Shown in pieces: positions 5,625-29,345 of a stretch of 64,000 nucleotides of DNA (its first letter is position 1; each line of letters starts with the position of its first letter). The notes below the pieces were generated by a model. It saw only the letters and a list, made by a program, of their open reading frames with translations. It did no database searches and was not told where the DNA came from. Source of the DNA: Vicinamibacterales bacterium (GTDB lineage: Bacteria; Acidobacteriota; Vicinamibacteria; Vicinamibacterales; UBA8438); NCBI GenBank assembly GCA_965263195.1, contig OZ253664.1, positions 3,253,045-3,317,044 on the forward strand, written 5' to 3'. A program made the translations under genes and the position numbers.

Positions 5625-5664
5625 CGGCCGTGCGGCCGCCAGGCGGCCCGCGGATCGATCCCGG

Positions 5665-6282
5665 TCATTCGCCGACGGTGAAGGGGACGGATGCGACGAC
5701 CCTATCCCAGTGCAGCGCCAGCCGCCCGCCGCCGCCGCTCATGTCGACGAACTGCCAGGAGAGCTGGTCGTACGCGTGGGGCGCCGTCTCGCGCCGCATC
5801 GGTACCCGCACGACGTCCTTGTCGGGCGTGTAGTAGTACGCGCCGAAGAGCGCCGCCTTGTTCTCGTAGTCGTATTCCTGCTGCGCCGGCCAGGTGGAGA
5901 CGACGAACGTCCAGGGATCGGTCGCCAGGTCGATGAAGACCGTGTACTCGCCGGCCGGAATGACCTGCGTGCCGAAGACGAGCGGCAGCTCGGCCAGCAG
6001 CTGGGTCGACTGGTTGGCGCCCGCGCGCCAGACCGGCGCGCCGTCGTTGAGGAACTCCCGGTAGTCGGCCGGGCCGAACAGGTTGCGGCCGCGCTTGATC
6101 GGCCGGCCGTAGCGGATCTCGATCCACCGGCCGCCGACGTACCCCGCGCGCTCGTCATACGTCCCGCCGACCTGCGTGGCGGAGCGGCCCGCCGGGCTGG
6201 CGATGCGCTGCTCCTGTGCTAGCGTGCCGCCACCGATGACACAGACAAGCAGGGCGATCGCTGCGGCGGACGATATCTTCAT
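5665..6282 (-). CDS. DUF2911-like secreted protein
   Basis: ATG at 6282 (MKISSAAAIALLV..) with GGAGG 5 nt upstream. IRYGRPIKRGRNLFG...PVWRAGANQSTQL matches the DUF2911 signature as I recall it. Confidence 0.65.
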   Translation of the reverse strand: MKISSAAAIALLVCVIGGGTLAQEQRIASPAGRSATQVGGTYDERAGYVGGRWIEIRYGRPIKRGRNLFGPADYREFLNDGAPVWRAGANQSTQLLAELPLVFGTQVIPAGEYTVFIDLATDPWTFVVSTWPAQQEYDYENKAALFGAYYYTPDKDVVRVPMRRETAPHAYDQLSWQFVDMSGGGGRLALHWDRVVASVPFTVGE

Positions 6283-7515: not shown

Positions 7516-8781
7516 GTGGCGGACATGCTGGGCCGCATGATGCGGTCGGTGGTCGCCAACGTCATGCTGGCGTCGGAACGCTGGCGCAACGGCGTCGTGT
7601 ACAACCCGTTCTCGGCCGCCATGGCCCGCAATCCGTACCCCATCTACGCCGAGCTGCGCGCCAGGGCGCCCGTGCACCGCAACCGCCTGCTGGACGCCTG
7701 GGTGCTCAGCCGCCACGCCGACGTGGATGCCGTGCTGCGGGACTTCCGGCGCTTCTCCAACGATCAGCGCAAGCGCGACCCCGTGCGCCGCCGCCGGAGC
7801 ACGCTGCCGCAGATTCCCTACCCGACCATCCTGTTCCTGGATCCGCCGGACCACACGCGGCTGCGTGCGCTCGTCAACAAGGCGTTCACGCCCAAGGCGG
7901 TCGCCGACCTGGAGCCGCGCATCCGCAGAATGACGCGTACGCTGCTCGACGCCGCGGCGGACCCCAACGGATTCGACCTGATGGAGACGCTGGCCAACCC
8001 GCTGCCGGTGATGGTGATCGCCGACATGCTGGGCGTGCCGGTGGAAGACCGCGCGCAGTTCCGGGAATGGTCCAACCGGCGCGCACGCATCCTCGAGCCG
8101 ACGGTGAGCCGCAGGGAATTCAGGATTGCCGAGGAGGCCAGCAAGTCGCTCGACACGTACTTCCTCTCGATCATCAAGGCCCGGCGCATCGTGCCGCGCG
8201 ACGACATCATCAGCGCGCTCATCCAGGTGGAGGAAGCAGGCGACAGGCTGACCGAGGGCGAAATGCTGGGCCTGCTGCGCCTGCTGCTGGTGGCCGGCAA
8301 CGAGACCACCACCAACCTGATCGGCAACGGCATGCTCGCGCTGCTGCGGCATCCGGAGCAGCTCGGCGCCCTGCGCGAGGACCCCGGCCGGATTCCGGCG
8401 GCGGTGGAGGAACTGCTGCGCTTCGACTCGCCCGTGCAGGCGTCGCTGCGGCTGGTGCTGGAAGACTGCGAGGTGAACGGCATTCCGCTGCGGCGCGACG
8501 ACAACGTCCTGCTGCTGAACGGCGCCGCCAACCACGACCCGGCGGTGTTCGACCATCCGGAGCGGCTCGACATCGGGCGCCGTGAGAACAACCACGTGGC
8601 GTTCGGCCGCGGCATCCACTTCTGCCTCGGCGCGCCGCTCGCGCGCCTGGAAGGTCGCATCGCCATCGAGGTGCTGCTGGAGCGCTACCCGTCGCTGCGC
8701 CTTATGTCCGACCGCCCCGCGTTTCGCAACAGCATCGTGCTGCGCGGGCTTAAGGCCCTGCCGGTCCGCGCAGCAGCGTAG
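7516..8781 (+). CDS. Cytochrome P450
   Basis: Heme-ligand loop FGRGIHFCLGAPLARLE, I-helix LLLVAGNETTTN, and an EELLRF (ExxR) motif. GTG start 4 nt after the NHL gene stop. Confidence 0.9.
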   Translation: MADMLGRMMRSVVANVMLASERWRNGVVYNPFSAAMARNPYPIYAELRARAPVHRNRLLDAWVLSRHADVDAVLRDFRRFSNDQRKRDPVRRRRSTLPQIPYPTILFLDPPDHTRLRALVNKAFTPKAVADLEPRIRRMTRTLLDAAADPNGFDLMETLANPLPVMVIADMLGVPVEDRAQFREWSNRRARILEPTVSRREFRIAEEASKSLDTYFLSIIKARRIVPRDDIISALIQVEEAGDRLTEGEMLGLLRLLLVAGNETTTNLIGNGMLALLRHPEQLGALREDPGRIPAAVEELLRFDSPVQASLRLVLEDCEVNGIPLRRDDNVLLLNGAANHDPAVFDHPERLDIGRRENNHVAFGRGIHFCLGAPLARLEGRIAIEVLLERYPSLRLMSDRPAFRNSIVLRGLKALPVRAAA

Positions 8782-8897
8782 CAACTGCGGAACACCGCCG
8801 CGATACCGTCGGCGACCGAACGGGAATCCTTGCGTGCGATCCAGTCCTGATCCATCATCCGTCTGTACGCCCGTGCGGGAACCGCGAGGAGGGGAAG

Positions 8898-9845
8898 ATG
8901 AACCACCGAATTCTCGCAGCGTTGTTTGCCGTGGCGGCGGTCGTGGTACTGATGCCGGTGAGCGTTGCAGGCCAGGCGCCGCCCACGCCGTGGGGCGACC
9001 CCGACCTGCAGGGACTCTGGACGAACTCCACGACGACGCCGTTGGAACGTCCGGACGACGTGTCGGCAGGAGATGTGCTTTCCAACGAGGAACGCGCGGC
9101 CCGGGACGCACAGGCGGACGTCACCCGCGAGGCGCGCGGCATCGAGTCGGGTACTGGCGAAACCGGCTCCTACAACAACTTCTGGGTCGAGCGGGGCGTC
9201 AGGATGGCGCGCGCGTCGCTCATCATCGACCCGCCGGACGGCAGGCTGCCGCTGACGCCAGCGGAGGCGACGCGCCGTGCGGGCCGCGAATCGTATCGGA
9301 ACCAGGCACCGGCCGGTCCCGAGGACCGCAGCGTGTTCGAGCGGTGCATCTCGCGCGGGTTGCCGGGCGCCATGATGCCCGGCTTCTACAACCACAACTA
9401 TCAGATCTTCCAGGTGCCGGGATACGTCGTGATCCTCATCGAGATGATCCACGATGCCCGCATCATTCCCCTGGACGGACGTCCGCACGTCGACCCGCAG
9501 ATTCGGCAGTGGCTCGGGGATTCCCGCGGCCGCTGGGAGGGCGACACGCTGGTGGTTGAGACCACCAATTTCACTCCGATGAACCAGCGGGCGCTTTCCG
9601 TCTTCGGCGGCAACGAGACCATGCAGCTGGTGGAACGGTTCACCCGCATCGACGAGGACAACATCGACTACCAGTACACGGTGACCGATCCGATGGAATA
9701 CACGCGACCGTGGACGGCGTCGACCCCGATGACGAATCTCGACGGCGGGCTGTACGAGTACGCCTGCCACGAGGGGAACTACGGACTGGAGAACATCCTG
9801 GCGGGCGCGCGTGCGCTGGAGCAGGCCGAGGCCGGCAGCCGCTAG
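8898..9845 (+). CDS. Secreted protein of the uncharacterised 'YEYACHEGNYG' family (paralog 3)
   Basis: Signal peptide MNHRILAALFAVAAVVVLMPVSVAGQ. Blocks PDLQGLWTN, ERCISRGLPG, EMIHDARIIPLDGRPH, GRWEGDTLVVETTNF, YEYACHEGNYGLENIL. Confidence 0.8.
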   Translation: MNHRILAALFAVAAVVVLMPVSVAGQAPPTPWGDPDLQGLWTNSTTTPLERPDDVSAGDVLSNEERAARDAQADVTREARGIESGTGETGSYNNFWVERGVRMARASLIIDPPDGRLPLTPAEATRRAGRESYRNQAPAGPEDRSVFERCISRGLPGAMMPGFYNHNYQIFQVPGYVVILIEMIHDARIIPLDGRPHVDPQIRQWLGDSRGRWEGDTLVVETTNFTPMNQRALSVFGGNETMQLVERFTRIDEDNIDYQYTVTDPMEYTRPWTASTPMTNLDGGLYEYACHEGNYGLENILAGARALEQAEAGSR

Positions 9846-9880
9846 CTGGACATCGTGCGAAGTGTGTGAGGAGGGCCGCA

Positions 9881-10312
9881 ATGATGCTGCATCCCGTACG
9901 GAGCCGCTTGCTCGCCCTGTTGGGTCTGGCAGGCTTGTTGGCCGTGGCGCTGCCCGCCGCGGCGCAGACTGAGCGGATGGAAATAGACGAGCTGAAGCAG
10001 CAGCTGGACGCCGGCGCCGAGGTGCTCATGATCGACGTCCGCGAGGACCACGAGGTCGCGAGCGGCTCGATTCCGGGCGCCATCCACATCCCGGTCGGGG
10101 AGCTCGAAGACCGGATGTCCGACATTCCCAAGGACGTGCGCCTCGTCTTCTTTTGAAACGGCGGAGGCCGGGGCTCCCGTGCTGCGGAGCTCTTCAAATC
10201 TCACGGTTACGACGCCGGCGAATTCTGCGCGCTGAACGACTGGAAGGCGAAGGGCTACGAGCTGGGCCAGACGGAGCGGCCGTCCGACGGGCCGATTAGT
10301 CCGGCGCCGTAG
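9881..10312 (+). CDS. Periplasmic single-domain rhodanese with in-frame TGA at the catalytic Cys position (candidate selenocysteine; alternatively a pseudogene)
   Basis: ATG at 9881 after GAGGAGG; signal peptide MMLHPVRSRLLALLGLAGLLAVALPAAAQ. The tracked ORF stops at TGA 10154-10156. The same frame stays open to TAG 10310-10312 and reads ..VRLVFF-[TGA]-NGGGRGSRAAELFKSHGYDAGEFCALNDWKAKGYEL. That is the rhodanese CxxGxR(S) active-site loop plus the normal C-terminal helices. Confidence 0.6.
10170..10193 (+). other. Candidate bacterial SECIS-like hairpin downstream of the in-frame TGA
   Basis: GGGGCUCC (10170-10177) pairs with GGAGCUCU (10186-10193): 8 bp including 2 G-U pairs. The 8-nt loop is CGUGCUGC. 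The loop starts 22 nt after the UGA. Confidence 0.35.
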
Positions 10313-15971: not shown

Positions 15972-16062
15972 GGAGAGGTACCGAAGTGGTCGTAACGGGG
16001 GCGCCTCGAAAGCGTCTTGTCGGGAAACCGGCACGTGGGTTCGAATCCCACCCTCTCCGCCA
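15972..16062 (+). tRNA. tRNA-Ser (anticodon CGA), CCA encoded
   Basis: Acceptor stem GGAGAGG/CCTCTCC. Anticodon arm GGCGC-CTCGAAA-GCGTC. Long variable arm. T-arm GTGGG-TTCGAAT-CCCAC. Discriminator G followed by CCA. Confidence 0.9.
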
Positions 16063-16591
16063 CTTGCATCCGCGCCCGAGGCCGGCAGGCCGGAGCGCGA
16101 TCGGATGAAGAATCTGATTAAGGTGGCGGGTTCGGCGTTCAGCGTCCGAACCCATCCGGCCCTGACGGCTTCCGATCAATCCAGGTGGCGTGAGCCAGAC
16201 AGCGCGGAGTGAACGCACACCGCGCCTACCTACCGGGCGCCGTCGGTCATCAGTCAAGCACTGTGGCGTAGGATGGCTATCCGTCGAGCCATCTCATAAG
16301 ATCTGCATCCACACCAACTCTCGTGCTCAACGGAAAAACATACCGCCATAAGTTACCAATGGGCGTGTAGCGACAGGTGAAACCTCCATGAAGATCTACG
16401 ACGCACTTAACAGTATCGGTAAACACGACCTCGTGCTGCCGGAGTTTCAGCGTGAATACGTATGGTCCAAAGAGCAGGCCAAGCAACTCCTTGTGTCCCT
16501 CATCAAGAGTTACCCCGTAGGCGGCATGTTGATTTGGAAAACGGACTCTCCGCCAGAACTCAAGAATATCAACGAGCTACCGGACAAACTA

Positions 16592-17425
16592 GAACCTATC
16601 TCAAAATCGTTTAAACAATATCAGCAGGGATGCGAGCTGCACAAAGCCCAGGAAGTTGTTCGGATAGTACTCCCAGCGCGTCACAATACGGCGCTGCCAT
16701 TGGAGCCAGGCAAAAAAGCGCTCGACCTTCCACCGCCGCGCGTAGCGACGTAAGGGCCGACCGTCCTGTGTCTTGCGCCGCTTCCGATTCTTGCGATGCG
16801 GCGCGATCATCTCGACACCCTCGACCTTCAGTTCAGCGTCCAAGGGGTCACTGTCGTACGCTTTGTCGCCAATCAGGTGCTCCGGCGTCGCCTCAATCAT
16901 GTAGAATTCGAAGCTCAACTGCACCAACGTGACTTCATGATGGTTCGCCGCGTGAGTGCTGACCGAGAGCGGCAGCCCCTCCCGGTCCACGATCCCCATG
17001 ATTTTCACGCCTTTTCCGCGCTTCGTCGGGCCGACCTCCGCGCCACCCCCCTTCGCCGACGAGAACATCGCGTCAATGAAACTCTCCGATTCGTCCAGGC
17101 CGCCCCGCTCGCGGAGCGTATTGGCCACATCCACCAGGATATCCCGGAGCACCTCGTGGCGGCACCACGTCTGAAAGCGGCGATGCACGGTCTTGTAGTT
17201 CGAATAACACTGCGGCAACATATGCCATTGTGCGCCCGTGTTCAGAATCCACAAGACCGCCTCCAGCACCCGACGGGTCGGAATAGGTTTGCGACCCGCT
17301 CGCCCCGGAACACGACGCTCCTCAGGAAAGTGCTCCCGAATCCGTTCCCATTGCTCGTCGGTCAACTTCACCATCACAATAAGATTAACTTAATTCGACC
17401 CCGATCTCAATTTTGAGATAGGTTC
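16592..17425. mobile_element. IS5-family insertion sequence (about 0.83 kb)
   Basis: Perfect 16-bp terminal inverted repeats GAACCTATCTCAAAAT (16592-16607 and reverse complement at 17410-17425). Flanked by TA within a CTAG target (16589-16592 and 17425-17428). Confidence 0.85.
16601..17377 (-). CDS. IS5-family DDE transposase
   Basis: The 258-aa product carries LTDEQWERI, RKPIPTRRVLEAVLWILNTGAQWHMLP, HRRFQTW, DKAYDSD and WKVERFFAWL, typical of IS5/IS427-group transposases. Confidence 0.9.
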   Translation of the reverse strand: MMVKLTDEQWERIREHFPEERRVPGRAGRKPIPTRRVLEAVLWILNTGAQWHMLPQCYSNYKTVHRRFQTWCRHEVLRDILVDVANTLRERGGLDESESFIDAMFSSAKGGGAEVGPTKRGKGVKIMGIVDREGLPLSVSTHAANHHEVTLVQLSFEFYMIEATPEHLIGDKAYDSDPLDAELKVEGVEMIAPHRKNRKRRKTQDGRPLRRYARRWKVERFFAWLQWQRRIVTRWEYYPNNFLGFVQLASLLILFKRF

Positions 17426-19624
17426 TAGGCACCGTCATGGTGCTGCTAGACGGGCAGCAACGCCTAACAACGCTGCATATGCTCCTGACCGGCAAGGTCC
17501 CTGCATTTTACAATGAAGCCGAAATAGAGAACGATCCACGAGACCTTTATTTCAATCTGGAAACAACGAATCTCCAGTATTACCAGCGATCGAAGATGAA
17601 GGACGATCCACTCTGGCAGGGTGTGGTCAAGTGCTTCGACGAAAAATCGATCAACCTGTTTGATATTGTGCAGGCGAAACAGCTTGACGTACAGGCGGCA
17701 TTCGATCTGGCGGATCAGTTGAATACGAATCTTACCACACTTCGGACCGTCCGTCATGCGGACCTACCAGAGCAGATCGTCCCGTCATCCGCGAGCCTTA
17801 CCGATGCGATTGACATTTTCGATCGAGTAAATAGCCAAGGCACGAAGCTGACGGATGCAGAGCTTGCCCTAACGCACGTAACGGCCAACTGGCCGCAGGC
17901 ACGGCGAGTCCTGAAGGCGAAGATTGGTAAGTGTGCGGAGCGCCGCTTCGACTTCACACTTACCTTTATGACCAGAGCTCTAACCACAACGGTAACCCAT
18001 CGAGCATTGTATGAGACGATTCACCCGGTCGACGGTAGCCGCCTCAAGGACGGATGGCGGCGACTGGACAAGCTTCTTGACTACCTGACAACACTCTTGC
18101 CCCAAGAGGCATTCATTCATTCAACGATGGACCTCAATACAACGAACGCGCTGATCCCACTGATCGCCTATTTGGAGGGTCAAGGAGGCAAGTTTCCGAG
18201 TGCTACGTCTGTGCGGCATGCGGTTCATTGGCTGTATGCGGCCTTGATGTGGTCACGATACACCAGCCAGACGGACCAACGGCTCGAGACGGACGTCACG
18301 CTCGTCGCTCGGGAGGCGGAACCGTGGGGCGCGCTTTGCACACATATCGTCGACCAGAGAGGAAGAATCGATGTCGAAGCGGGGGACTTCGCGGGTCGTG
18401 GCACGCCGCACCCGCTTTATCGCGCGGCGTTTATCTTGGCAAAGGCTCACGGGGCGACGGATTGGTTCAATGGCCTGCCATTGTCCCATACGCATGGCGC
18501 TGCGTACGGGTTGCACAGTCATCATATCTTCCCGCAATCACTCCTATACAAGAACGGTCTCAACCAACAGGACTACACGCACCGACAACTTGTGAACGAG
18601 ATAGCGAACCGCGCCTACTTGACGGCTGAAAGCAACATGGGACTTTCCAACAAGGAGCCGGCTGACTATCTGCCCGAAGTGGAGGAGAAATTTCCTGGCG
18701 CGTTGACAAAACAGTTCATCCCAATGGATGCACAACTGTGGAAAGTGGAACGGTACAGGGAGTTCTTGGAGGTTAGGCGTGGGCTGATTGCAAGGAAACT
18801 AAATGAATTCATGCAGAGTCTTGTCGTTGAACCGGAGACGTTACATCACAGACCGGTTGGACAGCTGATAGCACTCGGTGAGAGTTTTACCTTGGAGTTC
18901 AAGAGCAGTCTGCAGTTCGACATGGTCCGTGGCAAGCAGAACACGGCGTTGCGAGGATCCATTCTCAAGACGATCGCGGCATTTTTGAATTCAGAAGGAG
19001 GTACACTGGTGATCGGCGTAGAGGATTTGGGGACCGTGTGCGGTATTGATGCCGACCTTCACCTTGTCGGAAATTCTCGAGATAAGTTCGAGCAACTCGT
19101 TAGTTCTCTGGTAGTTCAATACCTCGGTGTCGGAATCGTACCATATTGCAGGTTTCGATTTGAGGAGGTCGAAGGCCGAACGGTGTACGTCGTTGATGTT
19201 GAGCCTTCCGCCGAGCCAGTTTTTGCAAAGTCTGAGAAAGGCTCAGTCTTTCATGTTCGCATCAGCAATACAACTCGAGCCCTTGATACTGCGGAGGCGC
19301 TACGTTATATCGAATCTCGAGGAATGGGTGCATAATGGATGGTGTCGTTCTTGAGGTGGGCGAGGCGTTCACGGGTGTGGTCGGTGGCGGGCAGCCGCCG
19401 TGTGTCCCGGGATGCGTCGTGTTAGGCAGATCATGGACTGGCCTTGCGCGGGATCCCTAGGGGGGGCAGGATGACCGGAGGGGGGCCAATACGGACTATC
19501 GTCCGAACGGCGCCGCCAGGGTGAGGCCGGCGGCTCCGGCGGCAGCCTTGAGGAGCGCCCGACGCGGGATGGAACTGCCGTATTGTCCCTTTCTTACGCG
19601 CCCGTCCATAGTCGAGACATCTCC

Positions 19625-20416
19625 TCAGTTAATTGTCGTGGTCTCAATGCCTTCGAGGCACACCCTCCACCGATCGGTCGGCCAACCATTGCTCTGCGCC
19701 GCAATGTTTCGGTCGATGTAGAACACGTACAGGTCCCGCACGCGTCCGGCCCTGGTGATCCTGCCGCACTCGGCTATCGCCTCGGCTGAAAGCGTCGCCT
19801 CGCCGTCGTATTCGTTCCACAAGGATGTGTTCTGCAACATGTCCGACACCAGGAGGAACGAATCGATGTCTTCATTTCGCTCAACGAGCGAGGCCATTGT
19901 CTCGACAATCGGCGATACGGTCGCTTCTTCCCGGTCCCGTAGTTCATCGAGTATCCCTCTGAGCCTGTTCAGGAAGGTCGCAAACTCGATTTCGACGACT
20001 CGAGGATTCTCATAGAGGAGATCGGCCATCTCCCCCTGCTTGGGTATGCACCACGAGCGGCCGGATTGGCTCGGATCCTGGTGTTCCGATTCGGGCAGTC
20101 CGTAGATGGACAGCTTTTGCAGGAACAACGTGTCTCTGGTCCACCCTTCAATTCTCTCGAACGCCCTCGCTCCGTCCTCCCCCGATATCTCGTTGGAGGT
20201 GTCAACGAGTATTACCGTGTGACCGGGTATCCGTATTCCTTCGCGGAGTTGCGCTCTTGTACCAGTCGGACAATACCCGTTGGCCTCACGCACCCGAAGT
20301 TGATCGGCGTAGTTCAAGTTGTACCCTACAACGACTACCAGCGCGCTCAGCGCCACGATGACCAGGACGAGTAGTACAACCTTGACGGGGTGGGGCGACT
20401 CGCTGCCGGAGCTCAT
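19625..20416 (-). CDS. Hypothetical N-terminally membrane-anchored protein with degenerate vWA-like motifs (operon gene 4)
   Basis: TM helix VKVVLLVLVIVALSALVVVVG, then VILVDTSNE ... SPIVETM ... FLLVSDM. The start ATG overlaps the upstream stop (ATGA 20413-20416). Confidence 0.65.
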   Translation of the reverse strand: MSSGSESPHPVKVVLLVLVIVALSALVVVVGYNLNYADQLRVREANGYCPTGTRAQLREGIRIPGHTVILVDTSNEISGEDGARAFERIEGWTRDTLFLQKLSIYGLPESEHQDPSQSGRSWCIPKQGEMADLLYENPRVVEIEFATFLNRLRGILDELRDREEATVSPIVETMASLVERNEDIDSFLLVSDMLQNTSLWNEYDGEATLSAEAIAECGRITRAGRVRDLYVFYIDRNIAAQSNGWPTDRWRVCLEGIETTTIN

Positions 20417-21822
20417 CCGGTGCCGGGGCCTCCTCTCCCGGTGGCCGGCCCGAGCACGACGCTTTCATATCGTTCCCACGAATCGGCAACCCTGGCGCAC
20501 TCCCGCTCAACGCTGTCGAAGAACTCCGCCTTCCCCGAATCCCACCACGCGTTTACGATCCTATCCGCCTCGTCCAGGATGCTCCAATCCGAAGGCGTGG
20601 CTGGAAAAGACCAGTCGACGCTGGCGCTCTCTCTGTGCACATTCAACATGCCCCGGTCAATCTTCTCGGCGTTATGCTTGTTGTGCGCTATAATGAAATC
20701 TGATTCTGCGAGATCCAGATAGGACCTTTGTTCCCAGCCCTCCTTGACATCCTCTAGAACGTTCCTCGCACGTCGCCTCTTTTTGTCGAGTTCCTCGATC
20801 CATCCTGCAACGTCGGCCCTGACACCCTTCGTGAGTTTCGTGCGGTAGCGCTCGGACAGGGTTTTGTAGTCTGCCTTGATATCCTTCCATTCGCGGTCCA
20901 GAAGCCTTTCCGCCTTTGCGCGCTTGATCCCGAATCGCACAAAGGTGAATCCCTTGTAGAATCCCACGGCACAGAGCGCCAAACCCAGGACGAGAAAGAG
21001 CAAAGACTCAAGTTCCCACGTCACCGGATTGAACGAGATGCCCGCAGCGAGTTCTCGTACCGATGCCAGGTTGATTTCGGTTGCCTGCAGCGTCTGACGT
21101 TCTCTTTCGTCGATAAGCCTTGCGAAAGCCTCTCGGTGACGTCCCACGATGAGATTCAGAGCCGTAGCGGACAGGAGTAACAGGCCGCAACCTGATAGAA
21201 GCGCCGCCCCTGAGTTCGAGTGGCGACGCACACCGGACAGCAGCAGGCCACCTCCTGCGCCGAGGGCGCCGACGTTGATGGCGGACACGAGTACTGCCGT
21301 GATGAAGGCACCAACCAGTCCGGTCGACAGGGCGCGTGTCAACAGGGTGACATTCGCCATGGCCTCGCCAACGATGCAGACCACGAGCATGGCTATGAGC
21401 TTCAACCACTGGTACCCCGTTGGTGCATCCGTATCGCTCGGCAGCGGCAACTCCGTCCGCGCATTCCGATGCTGCGAGCTACGGTGCTCGAGGACTGTGA
21501 GTTCGTTTTCGGCGTCGATCGTTACCTGCTGAGGCCCCTTTGAGCGTTTGAAATCCCAGCCGTTCAGCGGTTGGCCGATTTCCTTGGCGACGGTATCGAG
21601 GGTGCGGTTGACCAAATCCCGATAGGCCAGTCCGAGAGAGGTGAGAAGCTTGTGGTGGGCCGGCTTCCAGTCTCCGTTGGCGTGGAGGGCGATCTCGGCC
21701 GGGTCGAGGCCCAGCGACCTGGGATCGGTGGGCCAGGAGTTCTTCGAGGTCGGAACCGATGCGGCGGGTTCAGGCAACCTGCTCGACGGTTCCGAAGCAG
21801 TTTGGCTCGTGCCCTCAGTCAT
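20413..21822 (-). CDS. Hypothetical polytopic membrane protein, 469 aa (operon gene 3)
   Basis: About four hydrophobic helices (WLKLIAMLVVCIVGEAMANVTLL, GLVGAFITAVLVSAINVGALG, ALLSGCGLLLLSATALNLIVG, LLFLVLGLALCAVGFYKGF). A charged helical segment lies before the last helix, and there are long soluble termini. No family recognised. Confidence 0.65.
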   Translation of the reverse strand: MTEGTSQTASEPSSRLPEPAASVPTSKNSWPTDPRSLGLDPAEIALHANGDWKPAHHKLLTSLGLAYRDLVNRTLDTVAKEIGQPLNGWDFKRSKGPQQVTIDAENELTVLEHRSSQHRNARTELPLPSDTDAPTGYQWLKLIAMLVVCIVGEAMANVTLLTRALSTGLVGAFITAVLVSAINVGALGAGGGLLLSGVRRHSNSGAALLSGCGLLLLSATALNLIVGRHREAFARLIDERERQTLQATEINLASVRELAAGISFNPVTWELESLLFLVLGLALCAVGFYKGFTFVRFGIKRAKAERLLDREWKDIKADYKTLSERYRTKLTKGVRADVAGWIEELDKKRRRARNVLEDVKEGWEQRSYLDLAESDFIIAHNKHNAEKIDRGMLNVHRESASVDWSFPATPSDWSILDEADRIVNAWWDSGKAEFFDSVERECARVADSWERYESVVLGPATGRGGPGTG

Positions 21823-22298
21823 CAGAAACCCCGTCCTCCGGTTTGATCCTGCAATGTAGCGGCGAATCCGGAGTGTACGGGAAGTCGAAGGCGGTCGTCA
21901 ACGGAGATGGACAGCGCTGCTATTCTCCCTCGTCGCGCCTTGCCAGCGGGGCACCTCGCGACTCTCGATGCTTTCGCGGGGATTCTCCACGGGCTCCTAG
22001 CTGCTATGGCCCCGACGGTAGCGGCCAATTCTGCTTCAAGTCCTTGACGTCGGTCACGCAACGCATCCCTGTTCCGAATCAGCGACTGCCGTACGCGATC
22101 AGCTACGTGCCAGAGAGCGGTGGACGTGGAATGGATCGGTGGGCGAAGCAGGTTGGCAAACGGCGACACAACGACCCAGAGCAGACCGACTGATGCGATC
22201 CATGCAAGTGCACGAAGGCAGTTCTGCCACAGGCTGCTAACCTTGAGTCCAGAAAGGAGCCGGATGCTGACATCCGCCGTGGCATGGGAAATTGACAT
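21822..22298 (-). CDS. Possible small membrane protein (operon gene 2), uncertain
   Basis: ATG at 22298. One hydrophobic helix ALAWIASVGLLWVVVSPFANLL. Its TGA overlaps the ATG of the next gene (TGATG at 21820-21824). It overlaps the 3' end of 22237..23343 by 62 nt, so it may be an artefact. Confidence 0.35.
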   Translation of the reverse strand: MSISHATADVSIRLLSGLKVSSLWQNCLRALAWIASVGLLWVVVSPFANLLRPPIHSTSTALWHVADRVRQSLIRNRDALRDRRQGLEAELAATVGAIAARSPWRIPAKASRVARCPAGKARRGRIAALSISVDDRLRLPVHSGFAATLQDQTGGRGF

Positions 22299-23343
22299 CC
22301 CCGGTGCGAACGTTAGCAAGATGCCATTTCAGGAGGATGTACGCGGCTCGTGCATTACCATACGCACATTCGACTTCGGCGATTCTCCGGTTGGATAGAT
22401 GGCATCCAGGATGTGCCAGGTTGCGAAGGTCCCGCATCATGTCGAGGAGCGGGCGAGAGCGAAGCGTTCCCTCCGCCACTTTAAAATCTGGTAGCCATCC
22501 TGCCTCGCCAGCCACCACCGCGAGCTCATGCAAGCTCCAGCGTTTTGGGTTGGCGCGGTTCGGTCGCTCGCGGGCGGGCAAACGGTTACGCGCGTGTAGA
22601 GCGTCGTCGCGGCGGTTCAAGCAAGCAAACAAGAGGGCAGCCTCAATGGCGGAACCGATCATGACGGCCGCTGCGTGATACGCTCCGCCTTCCGCGCAGA
22701 TTTTGGCCTCAGATTCGAACTGTTTTTGGAGAACGCTCAGTCGTTCCAACTCTGGGACATCATCAAAGGCAAGGCGGCGGCCCTGCTCTCTACGCGCATC
22801 GTACGATTTCCGGTCCACGCGGTAGAGATCGGCGATGTCGTCAAAACCGTATTCACGCAGCGCCTCTTCGAACTTCCTGTCCAGAACATGCGAGTGTTGT
22901 TCGGTCAACTCCTCCCAATCATCCGGCCCTTGCCCGATGGGCCAGAACTCGTCGTCCTTGAGCCGTTCTCGCTGGCGTATGGCGTCCATGCGCGCCGCTA
23001 TGCCCGCGAGGTCGGCATTGTACAAGCCGTCTAGACAGCGCCGCTCATGAACACGTTCGATGGCGGACACCCGCAGTAGGAAGCAATAGGAGGGCGCGAA
23101 CACACTGGCGGCTTCCGCCGACCCAGCTGTGTCGATCCAGGCTCGCGTGGCGGTCTCGATCTCGGACAAGTCGAGCTTCAAGGCGTTCTGTAGTTGGTTG
23201 TCAGTGATACGGCAAAGCTCGTGCGCGTGTTCCTGAAAGTGATACCAGGCTCTGCAACTAGCAAGGATGGCATTTAGGGCTTGCGACACTGGTTCTGAGA
23301 GCCGAGTGCCACCGGTTCGACGGGTCTTTTTCGAATCATTCAT
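22237..23343 (-). CDS. Hypothetical protein with C-terminal HEPN-like helical domain (operon gene 1)
   Basis: ATG at 23343 (MNDSKKTRR..). The C-terminal region GGAYHAAAVMIGSAIEAALLFA ... LLDMMRDLRNLAHPG fits the HEPN helix pattern with an Rx4-6H-type motif. Confidence 0.6.
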   Translation of the reverse strand: MNDSKKTRRTGGTRLSEPVSQALNAILASCRAWYHFQEHAHELCRITDNQLQNALKLDLSEIETATRAWIDTAGSAEAASVFAPSYCFLLRVSAIERVHERRCLDGLYNADLAGIAARMDAIRQRERLKDDEFWPIGQGPDDWEELTEQHSHVLDRKFEEALREYGFDDIADLYRVDRKSYDARREQGRRLAFDDVPELERLSVLQKQFESEAKICAEGGAYHAAAVMIGSAIEAALLFACLNRRDDALHARNRLPARERPNRANPKRWSLHELAVVAGEAGWLPDFKVAEGTLRSRPLLDMMRDLRNLAHPGCHLSNRRIAEVECAYGNARAAYILLKWHLANVRTGDVNFPCHGGCQHPAPFWTQG

Positions 23344-23434
23344 TGTCGATGTGTCTCTCGTGGCGCGCCGAAGGTGGTCGCTGATGGCGTGGGGCCGACG
23401 GACCACATCTGCGCGGACACCCGCGTGGAGTCAA

Positions 23435-23509
23435 GACGACTACCACGCAGACTTCGCCGCGAAAATCAAAGACCAGATCGAGCAGGGCGTGGTGCCGTGG
23501 CATAGGAAA
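23435..23509 (+). pseudogene. Remnant of an ArdC-like (DUF1738 N-terminal domain) antirestriction gene
   Basis: The frame reads DDYHADFAAKIKDQIEQGVVPWHRK. This resembles the ArdC_N opening (..y..v...ii..le.G..PW.k). There is no plausible start and no continuation. Confidence 0.3.
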
Positions 23510-23535
23510 TCATCACCTGATCTTCGATCATTCGA

Positions 23536-24051
23536 TCATTCGCTCAACATTGCCCGCAGGTCCTTCATGAGTAAGAACAGGTGATAGGGATCCGTGGGGC
23601 TCGGCTCGAACTCCAAGGCTTCGTACCAGCCCCGCGCCTCGTCGTCCTTGGCATGGACGAGAAGTGCCCGAATACCGGCGATGTCGGCGGCTGCGGCGGT
23701 TCTGAGCAGTGCGTCCTTGACGAGCGCCTTGCCCAGGCCTCGTCCTTGCCAGGTCAGGTCGACCGCGAGACGGGCAAGGAGCATCACCGGGATCGGGTGC
23801 CGGGCCAGCCCCTTGCCGACCCGGAGAGGTGCGTCGGTATGTTCGACGGCTCCCGCCGCAAGGCTGTAGTAGGCGAGCACCGTCAATCCCCGGCAGGCGA
23901 CATAGGTCCGGGCGCTGTCGGCCTTCTGGTTCGCCAGCGCGAAACGCTTCAGAAAGCGATCGAGTGGCTCTTTCCCGCACTCGAAGGAATCGACATCGTG
24001 CGTTGCGTCGAGCTTCTCGACAGGAGACAACCCCTCCTGTTCCGGCGTCAC
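23536..24051 (-). CDS. GNAT-family acetyltransferase toxin (TacT/KacT-like)
   Basis: GTG at 24051 overlaps the antitoxin stop (GTGA). Motifs FECGKEPLDRFLKR, LLARLAVD..WQGRGLGKALV, ALLVHAKDDEARGWYEALEF. Confidence 0.8.
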   Translation of the reverse strand: MTPEQEGLSPVEKLDATHDVDSFECGKEPLDRFLKRFALANQKADSARTYVACRGLTVLAYYSLAAGAVEHTDAPLRVGKGLARHPIPVMLLARLAVDLTWQGRGLGKALVKDALLRTAAAADIAGIRALLVHAKDDEARGWYEALEFEPSPTDPYHLFLLMKDLRAMLSE

Positions 24052-24323
24052 TCCAGCACGCTCTTCTCCGCAAGCAATCGAGTCAAGCGGGGCTTGTGGG
24101 CGACCGGGCGGTCCAGGATGGCCTGGAAGGCCTGCCACTGGCGATCGTCGAGGCGGAAAATCCGCCGGTCGACCAGGGCGTCCTCAGCGGCGTTGATCCC
24201 TGCCTCGAGCAGAAACTCCGTGACGTTCTTGTGTGACGAGGCCGCAGCCCGCTGAAGCAACGCCTTCATGTTCGGGGTCGTCCGAACCTCAATGCGTTCC
24301 GACTTGTTTTCGGCGATGGCCAT
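24048..24323 (-). CDS. DUF1778 (TacA-like) antitoxin
   Basis: ATG at 24323 with GGAGG upstream. The 91-aa product reads MAIAENKSERIEVRTTPNMKALLQRAAASSHKNVTEFLLEAG..., the RHH-type DUF1778 pattern. Confidence 0.8.
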   Translation of the reverse strand: MAIAENKSERIEVRTTPNMKALLQRAAASSHKNVTEFLLEAGINAAEDALVDRRIFRLDDRQWQAFQAILDRPVAHKPRLTRLLAEKSVLE

Positions 24324-24549
24324 GAATGTTCCTCCGGTTGGATCCACCGACATTCTGTCATACGGATAGTGTACGGACAAGAACGCATCGACAGGCACGC
24401 TACCGTGCCTCACATCCTCCTGTGAGGGCCCGCTCGTTCCGCGTCTGGGATGAGGTGACCTCTGCCCACTGAGCCCGGGCGATGTCGGCGAGCGCGGAAG
24501 AGACTCGGCCCAAGTTCGCAAACTTGACAGTGCCGCTGGCCGACATATC

Positions 24550-25506
24550 ATGGCCGCCGTGGACGGAACGGTTGCCATTACCGATCACGGCTGGTACGAA
24601 TGCCTGCTGGCGCAGGACCGCCTCGACGAGATCAACTTCTGGACGCCGTCTGCCCACTGGGCCTTTCGAGGTGAGATCGGAGCGCCCTTCTTTTTCAAGC
24701 TGAAGGGACGCTACGACCACGCGATCTGTGGGTTCGCCTATTTCGCTCGCTACACTCGACTGCCGGACTGGCTCGCATGGGAGACCTTCGGCATCAAGAA
24801 TGGTTGCCAGACCCTCGACGCGATGCGCGACCGGATCGGTGGCATTCGAGCTCGGATCGACTACCGCGCCGCCTCGCCGTCGAATCAGATCGGCTGCATT
24901 CTCCTGTCCCAGCCGACGTTCTTTCCTCAAGACGCGTGGATTCAGGGGCCCAGGGATTGGCCACCCACGAACATGCGACCCAAACGGTACGACCTGACCG
25001 TGGGAGAAGGCCTGCGCATCTGGGAGGAATGTCGTGCCCAAGCCGCGACCGTTGGCGTGACTGCATCAATCGGTCGGCTGCCCCTGGTTCTTGAAGCGGC
25101 ACCGCGCTACGGGGCGCCCCAACTGGTTCAGCCGCGCCTCGGCCAGGGTATCTTCCGTGTGGCAGTCATGGATGCCTATTCCCGAGCCTGCGCCGTGACG
25201 CACGAGCATTCCCTGCCGGCGCTGGAAGCGTCCCATCTCCAGCCATATGCGAAGAACGGCCCACATGAAGTCCGCAACGGGGTTCTCCTCAGGGCTGACC
25301 TGCACCGACTGTTCGATCAGGGCTACGTCACCGTCACGCCAGAGTACCGAGTCGAAGTGAGTCCGCGGCTGAAGCTCGATTACGATAACGGCCACAGCTA
25401 CTACCCCCTGCACGGTTCCCGCGTGTCCCTGCCCAAAGCGTCCGAGGACGCGCCGGGCCCGGACTACCTGCGCTGGCACAACGAGCAGGTGTACCGAGCC
25501 TCCTGA
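24550..25506 (+). CDS. HNH nuclease (HNH_2-type) with N-terminal PUA/EVE-like domain; candidate modification-dependent restriction enzyme
   Basis: C-terminal CAVT....LEASHLQPY...GPHEVRNGVLLRADLHRLFDQGYVTV. N-terminal VAITDHGWYECL...EINFWTPS...PFFFKLKG..ICGFAYF. Confidence 0.7.
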   Translation: MAAVDGTVAITDHGWYECLLAQDRLDEINFWTPSAHWAFRGEIGAPFFFKLKGRYDHAICGFAYFARYTRLPDWLAWETFGIKNGCQTLDAMRDRIGGIRARIDYRAASPSNQIGCILLSQPTFFPQDAWIQGPRDWPPTNMRPKRYDLTVGEGLRIWEECRAQAATVGVTASIGRLPLVLEAAPRYGAPQLVQPRLGQGIFRVAVMDAYSRACAVTHEHSLPALEASHLQPYAKNGPHEVRNGVLLRADLHRLFDQGYVTVTPEYRVEVSPRLKLDYDNGHSYYPLHGSRVSLPKASEDAPGPDYLRWHNEQVYRAS

Positions 25507-25520
25507 TCGACAGGCCGACG

Positions 25521-26462
25521 ATGCGGTACTGGTGGGTGAATCAGAATCAGACGTATCGGGCCGAGGTGCGCGGCAGCTTCATGTGGTCGCCGAAGCGGAA
25601 CGCGAACGGTGCGCGCAATCAGTTCTACCAGAACATGCGATCCGTGGCGCCCGGTGACGTCATCTTTTCGTTCTGCGACACTCGCATCAAGGCGATCGGC
25701 GTCGTCACGGGCCCCGCCGAGACCGGCCCCAAGCCGGACTTCGGTTCAGTGGGCGTGAACTGGTCCAAGGAGGGCTGGTTTGTTCCCGTCGACTACTGTG
25801 CGTTGGAACACCGAGTTCGCCCGAAGGACCACATCGGCATCCTCCGGCCGTTTCTGCCTGCGAAGTACTCACCACTCCAATCGAACGGTGACGGCCTCCA
25901 GTCTGTGTATCTCGCCGAGCTACCTGAACCACTGGCGCAAGCGCTCATCGGTCTCATCGGCCAGGCGTTCTTGGACGCCTTCGCGACGATCGCTGACTAC
26001 CAGACGGCCTTTGATTCGTCCGAGCCAGACCAGAACATCATCGAGCGCGGCATCGTTGGTCCTACCTTCAGAGATCAAGTTGTGAAGTCGCGGCGTGGTC
26101 AAGGTGTCTACAGGGCGAATGTTCTGCTCCGGGAGTCGTCGTGCCGGGTCACTCGGGTGGACGATTCCAGACATCTCAAGGCCAGCCACATCAAGCCGTG
26201 GCGTGACGCGACCGATGCCGAACGCCTCGATGGGTCGAACGGGCTGCTGCTATCGCCGCATATCGATCACTTGTTCGACGGAGGCTACATCACGTTCTCG
26301 ACCGATCAGTCGCTCGTCATCGTTCCAGAGGTCCGAGACAGTTTGCTCGACGCCTGGGGAATCGACGCTGGCGTCCGTGTGGGCGATTTTTCCCGGGAGC
26401 AGAACGCCTACCTCGACTATCACCGCGCCAACGTGTTCAAGGACGCCCTCATGAAGACGTAA
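25521..26462 (+). CDS. Second HNH nuclease (HNH_2-type) with a different N-terminal PUA/EVE-like domain
   Basis: N-terminal MRYWWVNQNQTYRAEVRGSFMWSPK...APGDVIFSF..TRIKAIGVV. C-terminal CRVT....LKASHIKPW......NGLLLSPHIDHLFDGGYITF. Starts 14 nt after the previous gene. Confidence 0.7.
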   Translation: MRYWWVNQNQTYRAEVRGSFMWSPKRNANGARNQFYQNMRSVAPGDVIFSFCDTRIKAIGVVTGPAETGPKPDFGSVGVNWSKEGWFVPVDYCALEHRVRPKDHIGILRPFLPAKYSPLQSNGDGLQSVYLAELPEPLAQALIGLIGQAFLDAFATIADYQTAFDSSEPDQNIIERGIVGPTFRDQVVKSRRGQGVYRANVLLRESSCRVTRVDDSRHLKASHIKPWRDATDAERLDGSNGLLLSPHIDHLFDGGYITFSTDQSLVIVPEVRDSLLDAWGIDAGVRVGDFSREQNAYLDYHRANVFKDALMKT

Positions 26463-26489
26463 CGCCGACGCGGTTCCACCGGGGCCATA

Positions 26490-27158
26490 ATGACGCTCAA
26501 TACCGCCAGAGTGCGCGAAACCCTTGAACACGCGGACCGCTTTTACGCCGCATTTCACGCAGCGGAAACCTTCGGCGGCCCAAGCCTCTACTTCCATCGC
26601 CGGGCGCTCGAGACGAGGCACGCTCCGGCTTCGCCGCAGCACCTCGAATACGTTTACGCAACCCTCGCTTCGTGGGGAATGCACCGCATGGGCGCCGGCG
26701 GCTCAAAGATGCGCACGTTCGAAGAGTTCCGCGCCAGCGTCGAGCCCCTCGAGCACCAGATCGCCCAGGCGCAGGGTTTCGGCCCTGGCGCGATGAGCGA
26801 GGCAGACTGGTCCACCCTGCGGCAAATATTTTTCGGCCTGAAGATCATGGCGAGCAGCACGAGTCTGGTCGGCAACTCGAAGGTGATGCACCACATGCTG
26901 CCGAACATCGTGCCGCCTATCGACCGCGAGTACACGCTGCGCTATCTGTACGGCGCCACGACGATCGCCAACAACGTCGACAAGGAGTGGCGGAGGATGA
27001 GGGAGATCATGTCCGGCTTCTTCATCCCTGTCGCAAGCGACACGGCATTCGCCGCGAGGGCAGACAAGTGGATCGCGCTGCAGCGTCCATGGGACACCTC
27101 CGTCATGAAGGTGATCGACAACCTGCTCATAGGCAGTCGCAAGTCTGAGACAGTCTGA
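26490..27158 (+). CDS. Hypothetical protein, third gene of the HNH operon
   Basis: 222-aa ORF 27 nt after the second HNH gene. No motif recognised (..LVGNSKVMHHMLPNIVPPIDREYT..). Confidence 0.5.
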   Translation: MTLNTARVRETLEHADRFYAAFHAAETFGGPSLYFHRRALETRHAPASPQHLEYVYATLASWGMHRMGAGGSKMRTFEEFRASVEPLEHQIAQAQGFGPGAMSEADWSTLRQIFFGLKIMASSTSLVGNSKVMHHMLPNIVPPIDREYTLRYLYGATTIANNVDKEWRRMREIMSGFFIPVASDTAFAARADKWIALQRPWDTSVMKVIDNLLIGSRKSETV

Positions 27159-27259
27159 TAGTCCGCTCGACATGACTGGAACCTTCAGACTTCGGCTCGG
27201 AAGGCGGGACATCGGGAACTGGAGTGCCGGCACTGGAATACGGAGCGGAGAACCAAGAA

Positions 27260-27655
27260 GCCCCTCCAGGTCCTCCAGGTCCACGGCTTGCTCGGCCTTG
27301 TGCGCCAAGCGGGTCCTCTCGTCCTTCATCTTCGTGATCTTCGCGTCCGGGTCCTGCGGATGCGTCCAATCGTCATTGAAATCCTTCTTCGGGCGCTTGC
27401 GGTCCCTGCGGGCCAGTTCGGCGCGCGTCGGCGTGGCGATGCCCGCCGCCGCCGCCAGTCGTTGTAGGAACGTCTCGTAACCCGCGCCGGTATCCCACCG
27501 TACGATGCGTGCAACGCCGCATTGGCTTCCGGCGTCGTCGCGTCGATGCCGACCGTCTGGCCCCGGAGCAGACGCCTTGTAGCTTCCGATCTGGCGAGGC
27601 AATGCGCAACCGCGAACTTGTGGGACGGATTCGTCCCGCCGACTTCAGAAGGCAA
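27260..27655 (-). pseudogene. Truncated, frameshifted IS1182/IS5-family transposase remnant
   Basis: Two frames carry consecutive transposase blocks. One has LLRGQTVGIDATTPEANAAL. The other has IVRWDTGAGYETFLQRLAAAAGIATPTRAELARRDRKRPKKDFNDDWTHPQDPDAKITKMKDERTRLAHKAEQAVDLE. The N- and C-terminal parts are missing. Confidence 0.7.
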
Positions 27656-28262
27656 CCCCCTGCGAATCCGCCGAGTAGTCGGGGACGTTCCGCTGGAATA
27701 CGCGCCAGTAGTGCATGACGGCTGTGACGCGCTCCTGTCCGTCCGGCCCGCGCTCGACCGTTACGGGGTTTCTGCCCATCACCCCCGCGACCTCGTCGCG
27801 GTCGGTCATCAGTGCGACGGTCGCCTCGTAGATCTTGTCGTCTATCTTCAGGCGTACGCGCGGGTCGCGGGACACGTTCTGGGTCCAGTACTTGTCGTTC
27901 GGGAAGGGCGTCTGCATGCGGCGCTCGTCCGAGCGGGCGTGGATGTAGAGCTTGTCACCGCGCCCGACGATGCCGATGGTGACCGAGTGGGGAATGCCGT
28001 ACCACGTGCGGGTCTCGAGCATGACGGTGTCGCGGCGCTCCGGGTCGTTGAGGTTGTTGACGAAGTCCCAGTTCGTGACGAGCTCCCGGGACACGTTGCC
28101 CGTGAGCCACAGCCCGGGTCTGGCGATCCGGTTGTTGTTGGCGAATTCCTCGCCGCTGGGATCCAGGTATTGGGGCTCGTAACCCACCAGGCGCAACGTG
28201 AGGAGCGCCAGCACGAAGACACCCACTACTAGCGCGCCGCCGATCTTGACCGTTCTCGTCAT
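27645..28262 (-). CDS. Hypothetical membrane-anchored protein (weak resemblance to split-barrel/PNPOx-like folds)
   Basis: ATG at 28262 (MTRTVKIGGALVVGVFVLALLTL..), followed by a beta-rich region ..KLYIHARSD..WTQNVSRDPRVRLKIDDKIYEATV... The functional guess is weak. Confidence 0.45.
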   Translation of the reverse strand: MTRTVKIGGALVVGVFVLALLTLRLVGYEPQYLDPSGEEFANNNRIARPGLWLTGNVSRELVTNWDFVNNLNDPERRDTVMLETRTWYGIPHSVTIGIVGRGDKLYIHARSDERRMQTPFPNDKYWTQNVSRDPRVRLKIDDKIYEATVALMTDRDEVAGVMGRNPVTVERGPDGQERVTAVMHYWRVFQRNVPDYSADSQGVAF

Positions 28263-28387
28263 GGTCGTCCCCCCGGCGGCGACCGCCCGCTGAACGCGGG
28301 CATCGATCGGCCCCAGAGTATCACTCCGGTGGCCCACGACAAGTCAGCCCAACGGCGGACGTTCAGCCGCGGCACGATGCCCGATCG

Positions 28388-29227: not shown

Positions 29228-29345
29228 CTGGGGACCTCTTCGCGGGTGGGTATCAAGAGAGGTTCGTCTTCGACACGGTGTCGCGTGGACAAGATACCTC
29301 GTTCCGAAGATGGAGCCTCCAGGAAACCCGGTACTGTTCACAGCC

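Follow-up and report, generated by a model that had tools for sequence, protein, structure and literature searches.

A putative DUF262-DUF1524-Schlafen defence gene beside a tRNA-Ser gene, interrupted by a recent IS5-family insertion in a Vicinamibacterales bacterium

The window analysed here, i.e. the whole stretch of 64,000 nucleotides, very probably carries a horizontally acquired single-gene anti-phage enzyme of the DUF262-DUF1524-Schlafen class, whose gene became a pseudogene when an active IS5-family element recently inserted into it. Members of this class, which corresponds to the 'DUF262-Slfn' group of PMC13056530, are built on a GmrSD scaffold like that of BrxU and end in a prokaryotic Schlafen domain. 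The features of the locus are the following.

15972-16062, plus strand: tRNA-Ser(CGA), left edge of a low-GC accessory island (ARAGORN)
16388-16591, plus strand: 5' fragment of the defence gene, codons 1-68 (GmrSD_N, 48.7 bits for the fragment alone, Pfam)
16590-16591, no strand: left copy of the TA target-site duplication, target CTAG (from the sequence)
16592-17425, minus strand: IS5-family insertion sequence of 834 bp with perfect 16-bp terminal inverted repeats (16592-16607 and 17410-17425)
16601-17377, minus strand: IS transposase of 258 aa in a single intact frame (DUF4096 and DDE_Tnp_1; NCBIfam NF033580, transpos_IS5_3)
17426-17427, no strand: right copy of the TA target-site duplication (from the sequence)
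17428-19335, plus strand: 3' fragment of the defence gene, codons 69-703 and stop, 90% of the joined protein
17449-17463, plus strand: DGQQR motif of the DUF262 NTPase domain, residues 76-80
18514-18654, plus strand: divergent DUF1524 His-Me (HNH-type) motif HSHHIFPQ ... NEIAN ... SN, residues 431-477
18880-19284, plus strand: Schlafen/AlbA_2 domain, residues 553-687 (SLFN_AlbA_2, Pfam)

The excised ORF was reconstructed, as the initial annotation had suggested. Joining 16388-16591 to 17428-19335 yields a single frame without internal stops, 703 codons long and closed by a stop codon, in which all motifs named in that annotation lie at the positions given for them. The 5' fragment is the beginning of the DUF262/GmrSD_N domain, holds LPEFQREYVW (16436-16465) as well as the conserved Ser37, and aligns with residues 11-58 of BrxU. 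The 3' fragment aligns end to end with intact homologs and is called by gene callers as an ORF of 632 aa with its start at ATG 17437.

The intervening element was confirmed in every detail claimed for it, from its length and position to the inverted repeats and the TA duplication inside CTAG. The two ends, GAACCTATCTCAAAAT and ATTTTGAGATAGGTTC, match exactly as reverse complements over 16 bp, and the junctions read C-TA-[IS]-TA-G. The insertion point is a CTAG site at codon 68/69, within the DUF262 NTPase domain. The transposase scored 218.8 bits against NF033580 (IS5_3; cut-off 110), while the Pfam scores were 82 bits for DUF4096 and 52.8 bits for DDE_Tnp_1. Eight full copies and one fragment of the element were counted genome-wide. 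The transposase frame is intact in all eight full copies, seven of which have TA..TA flanks, and the copy described here is 100% identical to two others (three identical copies in the genome). Another copy of the same element splits a type I hsdS gene.

The G + C content drops directly 3' of the tRNA-Ser gene, from about 0.70 to 0.52-0.60. The value of the interrupted gene itself is 0.53; window and genome lie at 0.67-0.68, and the DNA directly upstream at about 0.70. The best relatives from the same genus are merely 37-40% identical, no orthologue was found in relatives, and occurrence in the phylum is patchy (7 of 301 genomes). Judged by its low G + C content, its adjacency to tRNA-Ser and the low identity of the same-genus relatives, the gene is horizontally acquired. 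The search for the island border found no same-strand direct repeat of at least 15 bp matching the 3' end of tRNA-Ser, and no integrase was present among the ORFs scanned. Intact homologs either directly adjoin DISARM-like helicase, MZB, methylase and PLD genes or lie near other nuclease and toxin-antitoxin genes. These neighbourhoods and the patchy distribution, supported by the result for EcoSlfn7 given below, suggest a role of the family in defence.

At the N-terminus of the joined protein, residues 5-216 match GmrSD_N/DUF262 (PF03235) with 105.5 bits (Pfam cut-off 33.2), and the domain ends near position 17871. Its motifs LPEFQREYVW and DGQQR are invariant in 28 close homologs, as is S37, and the element separates the two motifs in this genome. 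Of 30 divergent members of the family, 28-29 also have DGQQR. The assignment of the central region to DUF1524, likewise made in the initial annotation, stands in a restricted sense. With 22.0 bits, the protein of the window itself remains below the curated Pfam cut-off of 23 for GmrSD_C/DUF1524 (PF07510), but 18 of the 28 close homologs match this model at E ≤ 0.01 (best value 5.7e-6). H433, H434, N458 and N462 are invariant in all 28, and HMMER aligns HHIFP (HSHHIFPQ, 18514-18537) with DHIYP of BrxU. This HH..N..N pattern, the matching homologs and the BrxU fold support a divergent member of DUF1524. Among the 30 divergent members, the His-Me histidine is kept in 24 and lost in six; the catalytic residues of the Schlafen domain are more strictly kept (28-29 of 30).

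BrxU (7P9K) was both the best sequence match in the PDB (E 7.8e-12) and the best fold match found with Foldseek (E 3.9e-7, about 620 columns, including the His-Me region). The model used for the fold search was the AlphaFold2 prediction of an intact homolog (P0002). Residues 1-106 of this model are poor (pLDDT < 50), and for this reason the model does not fix the arrangement of the domains. HEC-05, which corresponds to BrxU, was the best PADLOC model (E 8.5e-46), and the NCBIfam search returned no model for the defence protein.

For the C-terminal domain, the initial annotation had proposed a Schlafen/AlbA_2 module. SLFN_AlbA_2 (PF04326) matches residues 553-687 with 66.6 bits (Pfam cut-off 25.3), and all 28 close homologs match as well. 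Together with the 105.5 bits for DUF262, this value bears out the proposed identity as a GmrSD/BrxU-like protein with a C-terminal Schlafen/AlbA_2 domain. The Schlafen catalytic motif is defined as Ex4(E/D)xK with a downstream Asp (PMC13056530), and here it is E553-SFTL-E558-F-K560 plus D601. The stretch ESFTLEFK...GGTLVIGVED begins at 18880; in the alignment to Slfn13 (5YD0), ESFTLEFK falls on ESASIEFK and GGTLVIGVED on GGYLLFGVDD. E553, E558, K560 and D601 are invariant in the 28 close homologs. The Schlafen domain of the P0002 model has pLDDT values of about 80-90, and Foldseek matched it to 3LMM, SAMD9 (7KSP, 9O0D), SLFN13, SLFN14, SLFN12, SLFN5 and SLFN11 at probabilities of at least 0.9. 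Among the structures matched by the C-terminal domain of this model is DIP2311.

It is unlikely that AlbA_2 serves the intact family as a nucleic-acid-binding module for targeting or sensing instead of as an RNase, in which case the protein would be a type IV restriction enzyme of the ordinary kind, extended by a DNA-binding domain. Such a role would agree with the original description of AlbA_2, also for DUF1524 proteins, as DNA/RNA-binding (PMC5714182), and with the Foldseek match to 7KSP, a structure of the SAMD9 DNA-binding domain. However, the Ex4ExK motif and Asp do not vary among the close homologs, and the motif is present in 28-29 of the 30 divergent members, compared to 24 for the His-Me histidine. 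Moreover, this same motif is needed for tRNA cleavage by SLFN11 and by the prokaryotic Schlafen RorSlfn5 (PMC13056530).

In the intact protein, the DUF262 ParB/Srx-type NTPase (QREYVW, DGQQR) would act as a nucleotide-dependent sensor or switch. The His-Me finger would cleave invading DNA, by analogy with BrxU and GmrSD, and the Schlafen domain (Ex4ExK and D) would be the tRNA- or RNA-cleaving effector that stops translation. In this genome, DUF262 is split, with the QREYVW half on a stub of 68 codons and the remainder on a remnant of 632 codons. No convincing promoter was found for the remnant, and there is no sigma-70-like one between the end of the element and the ATG. With DUF262 split and no evident promoter in front of the remnant, the defence function has most likely been lost.

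We consider it quite improbable that the remnant (17437-19335) still works as an N-truncated protein. It would be transcribed from a promoter inside the element or at its end, and the product would retain the His-Me finger and the Schlafen domain but not the complete DUF262 switch. The in-frame ATG of the remnant lies 10 nt past the end of the element, a weak AGG is located 7 nt upstream of this ATG, the frame has no lesions and gene callers annotate it as a protein. However, the remnant lacks 71 residues, among which are two elements of the ParB/Srx-like fold, S37 and the invariant PEFQREYVW block, and mutations in DUF262 abolish defence by BrxU and HEC-06. The missing sigma-70-like promoter also speaks against expression, and a very recent insertion accounts for the intact frame just as well, given an element 100% identical to two other copies.

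The initial annotation had described a clean and recent insertion of an IS5-family element that inactivated the gene, and our results agree with it. The insertion is regarded as recent because the element is identical to two other copies and because neither fragment carries any further damage. An assembly artefact was rejected: a contig of an independent assembly (L018) has the same right-hand junction between element and gene, with 99.96% identity, and the target-site duplication and inverted repeats are intact. That both fragments belong to one gene in relatives, as had been assumed, is confirmed by intact homologs of 697-709 aa (up to 77% identity), which span 99-100% of the joined protein. 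Two independent genes were rejected on the basis of the 120 best homologs, all of them single proteins of about 700 aa that extend across both fragments, and of the length of 703 aa after excision, which equals that of the closest intact homologs. With such homologs, the restored length, the junction in the second assembly and duplications and inverted repeats at the genomic copies of the element (TA..TA in 7 of 8) against it, and no support found beyond ORFs called apart solely owing to the element, the explanation by separate genes or an artefact can be dismissed. For annotation, the stub of 68 codons and the 'DUF262 protein' of 632 aa form a single pseudogene.

Two wider proposals can be made, which in combination we regard as possible but rather unlikely. 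The first is a two-pronged defence in a single polypeptide, in which a BrxU-like NTPase switch may govern a His-Me finger that cuts DNA as well as a Schlafen effector that cuts tRNA. The Schlafen RNase is proposed as the indispensable arm because its triad is kept in 28-29 of the 30 divergent members, while six have lost the His-Me histidine. Independently of this, selection may have favoured the loss of defence through the element. At least two defence genes of this genome, the present gene and the type I hsdS gene, are disrupted by one active element, which has probably cost the strain this defence and the type I restriction specificity subunit. This double knockout could reflect selection to shed costly or autoimmune defences and not just a target bias towards CTAG or low G + C content. 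The position of a His-Me nuclease between DUF262 and Schlafen, together with its weaker conservation relative to the active site of Schlafen, provides a testable hypothesis on the effector module. Current understanding is not challenged by these results.

The initial annotation had suggested that the three-part layout is unusual, which does not hold. More than 120 clusters of intact proteins of about 700 aa share this architecture at 57-77% identity. The family is a large one, with about 130 clusters when the contiguous DUF1524-Slfn part is grouped at 50% identity, and the layout has been published (PMC5714182, PMC13056530). The DUF262-DUF1524-Schlafen layout is therefore real, but common and previously described, and the case presented here is an ordinary, recent gene loss.

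Compared to IS5 elements with a single-ORF DDE transposase, the inserted element is typical in its length of about 0.83 kb, its 16-bp inverted repeats, its DUF4096 and DDE_Tnp_1 domains and its TA duplication at CTAG or YTAR targets. Among annotated elements, the closest are ISDds9-like ones of Deinococcus and IS5 elements of Leptospira, with about 50-55% amino acid identity. The transposase frame found here is continuous, while the tblastn matches to these relatives are split into two pieces.

With regard to the defence protein, AlbA_2 was reported as a usual C-terminal addition to DUF1524 proteins (His-Me finger group 3; Jablonska et al., NAR 2017, PMC5714182). The domain combination is the same, although it was mentioned there on a bioinformatic basis only and AlbA_2 was read as DNA/RNA-binding and not as a nuclease. 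DUF262-Slfn fusions account for 1.8% of prokaryotic Schlafens (Perez Taboada et al., Nat Microbiol 2026, PMC13056530). They share the N-terminal DUF262, the Schlafen domain (PF04326) with Ex4ExK, the single-gene organisation and the location in defence neighbourhoods with the protein of the window. EcoSlfn7 of E. coli UC4224 is the sole protein of this group that was tested in that study, for plating efficiency only; it was shown there to protect E. coli against phages and reduced the plating of T7 about 540-fold. The likeness of the window protein to EcoSlfn7 is one of described domain layout; blastn in distant mode with this gene and a gammaproteobacterial homolog gave no match in all complete E. 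coli genomes. Unlike the members of the published group, the copy in the window is broken by the element, and the middle DUF1524 His-Me module of the family is not mentioned in PMC13056530. BrxU (PDB 7P9K), a BREX-associated type IV restriction enzyme of the GmrSD family, shares QRExVW, the conserved Ser and DGQQR of DUF262, as well as the helical linker and the DUF1524 His-Me finger. It differs in its length of about 580 aa, in having no Schlafen domain and in its nuclease motif (DHIYP instead of HHIFP), and its identity to the window protein is about 19-20%.

Re-reading of the sequence confirmed the initial annotation of an IS5-family element with regard to its coordinates, its perfect 16-bp inverted repeats (GAACCTATCTCAAAAT and ATTTTGAGATAGGTTC at the ends) and the TA duplication within a CTAG target. 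The empty site before insertion reads ...AAAC-TA-GGCA....

Features of the interrupted locus (window positions) and of the joined protein (residues)
15972-16062, tRNA-Ser(CGA), with the defence gene starting 325 bp further on
16388-16591 and 17428-19335, plus strand, the two parts of the defence gene
16590-91 and 17426-27, TA flanks of the element (sequence)
16592-17425, IS5-family element, 834 bp (sequence reading)
16601-17377, minus strand, IS5-family DDE transposase ORF, 258 aa (NCBIfam IS5_3, Pfam DUF4096 and DDE_Tnp_1)
Residues 5-216, GmrSD_N/DUF262 (Pfam, 105.5 bits)
Residues 432-484, GmrSD_C/DUF1524 (Pfam, 22.0 bits, just below the cut-off of 23)
Residues 553-687, SLFN_AlbA_2 (Pfam, 66.6 bits)

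The transposase scored 218.8 bits against NCBIfam IS5_3 (cut-off 110). Its nearest annotated relatives, from plasmid records, are IS5-family elements of Deinococcus (ISDds9-like) and Leptospira with amino acid identities of ~50-55%. A second, independent assembly (ENA ERZ25068811, contig_63; locus L018) spans window positions 16793-19490 at 99.96% identity and therefore contains the same junction between element and gene. Eight full-length copies, along with a fragment of 142 bp, are present in the genome of the window (5.04 Mb, contig GC 0.67-0.69). The transposase frame is intact in all eight copies and TA is found on both flanks of seven. Three copies, including that of the window, are mutually identical and interrupt a CTA/TAG site in every case. 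The element is genuine and active.

When joined, the two parts of the gene form a single open frame of 703 codons (junction between codons 68 and 69), and the predicted restoration of the frame by deletion of the element was thus borne out. The insertion is recent: no differences separate the window copy from its two sister copies, its target duplication is undamaged and both gene fragments are free of secondary lesions. The element parts the invariant PEFQREYVW/S37 block from DGQQR inside one ParB/Srx-like domain. The 5' stub runs on into the element as a 121-aa ORF; the 632-codon remnant starts with ATG, and no recognisable promoter was found for it. With the DUF262 domain split, the protein has most probably lost its function, in line with the proposed inactivation.

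The joined protein contains the motifs LPEFQREYVW, DGQQR, HSHHIFPQ and ESFTLEFK...GGTLVIGVED. Of the three domains initially assigned, DUF262 and AlbA_2 are well supported, while DUF1524 scored below the cut-off. Judged by conservation, the DUF1524 assignment may be considered rescued at the family level, as 18 of 28 close homologs match the profile at E ≤ 0.01 (best 5.7e-6) and H433, H434, N458 and N462 are invariant among the 28. The Ex4ExK motif plus Asp, which define the Schlafen RNase active site (PMC13056530), are also present, with E553, E558, K560 and D601 invariant in the same homologs.

A search of 5.8 billion proteins with the joined protein yielded 1,829 matches, of which the top 120 clusters were examined. 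Apart from the window's own fragment, these best 120 are all 697-709 aa in length; each has PF03235 and PF04326, and some have PF07510 as well. At identities of 57-77%, they align with 99-100% of the joined protein, which refutes a reading of the fragments as two independent genes and marks the three-part layout as that of a conserved family. When residues 400-703 (the DUF1524-Slfn part) were searched against 1.84 billion 50%-identity representatives, 132 were obtained at E ≤ 1e-30, many of them ~700 aa long and matched at the C-terminus. The architecture is hence not unusual, contrary to what had been suspected. Jablonska et al. 2017 (PMC5714182) already name AlbA_2 among the customary C-terminal additions of DUF1524 proteins. 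Full-length homologs at 37-39% identity occur on haloarchaeal and Sinorhizobium plasmids, and Schlafen-less versions matching residues 1-534 were found in cyanobacteria and elsewhere.

At the tRNA gene, the GC content drops from ~0.70 to 0.52-0.60 and stays low until roughly 31 kb (defence gene 0.53). No orthologue was found among 40 relatives, the best same-genus matches being 37-40% identical with equal overall length. Strong homologs are present in 7 of 301 genomes of the phylum (6 of 185 genera), among them an intact 702-aa copy with 56% identity and the truncated copy described below. Several intact homologs lie directly downstream of DISARM-like sets of SNF2 helicase, MZB/DUF1998, N6_Mtase-Eco57I and PLD (PLDc_2) genes (loci L019 and L022/L023; JGI contig of homolog P0007). 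Others are solitary, next to PD-(D/E)XK, Mrr-methylase or toxin-antitoxin genes. An anti-phage role fits the scattered occurrence of the gene, its position in an island and the defence genes near its homologs.

The island also contains two adjoining genes at 24550-26462, encoding proteins of 318 and 313 aa. Both proteins have a C-terminal HNH_2 (PF13391) nuclease domain behind an unassigned N-terminal part and probably represent additional modification-dependent nucleases; in Bradyrhizobium, an HNH_2 nuclease is the next gene after an intact homolog. Close to the right-hand border of the island is an unrelated DDE_Tnp_1 transposase of 614 aa (30570-32414, minus strand). In a gammaproteobacterial MAG (L031), a duplicated Trm112p/adenylosuccinate-synthetase 3' segment (5419-5924 and 8720-10230) flanks an intact homolog and a toxin-antitoxin cluster, suggesting a small island inserted at the purA end. 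In another genome of the phylum (G164:C15:1728681-1730033; L027 1501-2853), the homolog ends right after HSHHIFPQ (450 aa), followed by unrelated sequence, and is a second example of decay in this family. A further Schlafen/AlbA_2 domain (38% identical to that of the joined protein) is encoded elsewhere in the genome, outside the window (G000:C1:2892714-2893232), where it forms one terminus of a 1,362-aa frame; several relatives have similar proteins of ~1,200-1,360 aa.

Outside the window, a type I restriction-modification specificity gene (hsdS) is interrupted by another copy of the element (98.7% identical; G000:C1:1083415-1084248; L006 1501-2334), and the ORF ahead of this gene has an HsdM-like end. 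In-silico deletion of this copy and one TA restores a 412-aa specificity subunit with two Methylase_S stretches. Therefore, at least two defence genes of this genome are disrupted by one type of element. Two more copies lie within long frames (G000:C1:4035462-4036295 and 2520580-2521413; L007, L004). One of these frames codes for a metalloprotease that is reprolysin-like and has Ig domains (Pfam). The other, a 294-aa ORF, contains a PD-(D/E)XK-like 'D..VEVK' stretch and had no match in a Pfam search. CTAG is a rare site in the genome as a whole (0.41 per kb) and reaches 0.92 per kb in the low-GC island (16063-31000; ~2.3x), which could steer the element towards horizontally acquired DNA, defence genes included. 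Several copies also sit in DNA of lower GC, and target bias is thus a sufficient explanation for insertions in defence genes.

BrxU (PDB 7P9K), a type IV restriction enzyme of the GmrSD family, and HEC-06 no longer confer defence when DGQQR or the His-Me motif is mutated (Payne et al.). By analogy with both, the DUF262 NTPase (DGQQR) would be essential and would regulate the enzyme; the Schlafen domain, once activated, would cleave tRNA as in SLFN11 and RorSlfn5. Among 30 divergent full-length members (24-50% identity), DGQQR and the Schlafen E/E/K/D residues are each kept in 28-29, and the catalytic histidine of the His-Me finger in 24 (R, Y or Q in six). DGQQR is retained in all six members without this histidine and an intact Schlafen Ex4ExK/D in five; homolog P0189 has neither nuclease site. 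This pattern suggests that NTPase and Schlafen RNase may form the core sensor-effector pair, with the DNA nuclease as an extra arm losable in some lineages. Both nuclease sites are invariant within the window's lineage. It is this family-level hypothesis, of which module is the effector, that is of modest interest.

BrxU is the best PDB sequence match of the joined protein (E 7.8e-12), with HHIFP opposite DHIYP, the nuclease motif of BrxU. Among PADLOC models, HEC-05 ranks first (E 8.5e-46), which is BrxU according to Payne et al. For the closest intact homolog (P0002, 77% identical, 703 aa), an AlphaFold2 model (mean pLDDT 71, residues 1-106 poor) matches BrxU across ~620 columns (E 3.9e-7). 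The C-terminal domain of the model resembles DIP2311 (3LMM), the SAMD9 tRNase/DNA-binding domain and SLFN13, 14, 12, 5 and 11. In the HMMER alignment with Slfn13 (5YD0), ESFTLEFK falls opposite ESASIEFK, and GGTLVIGVED opposite GGYLLFGVDD. Perez Taboada et al. 2026 (PMC13056530) classified 5,930 prokaryotic Schlafens, 1.8% of which are DUF262 fusions. With one DUF262-Slfn protein, EcoSlfn7 of E. coli UC4224, a wide variety of phages plated less efficiently, and the effect was largest for T7 (~540-fold); its mechanism lay outside the scope of that study, which does not mention a DUF1524 module. When complete E. coli genomes were searched by blastn, neither the defence gene nor a gammaproteobacterial homolog had a match at the DNA level, and EcoSlfn7 is likened to the window protein by its published domain description (DUF262-Slfn). 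Taken together, the gene is an ordinary, IS-broken new member of a known and partly characterised defence family.
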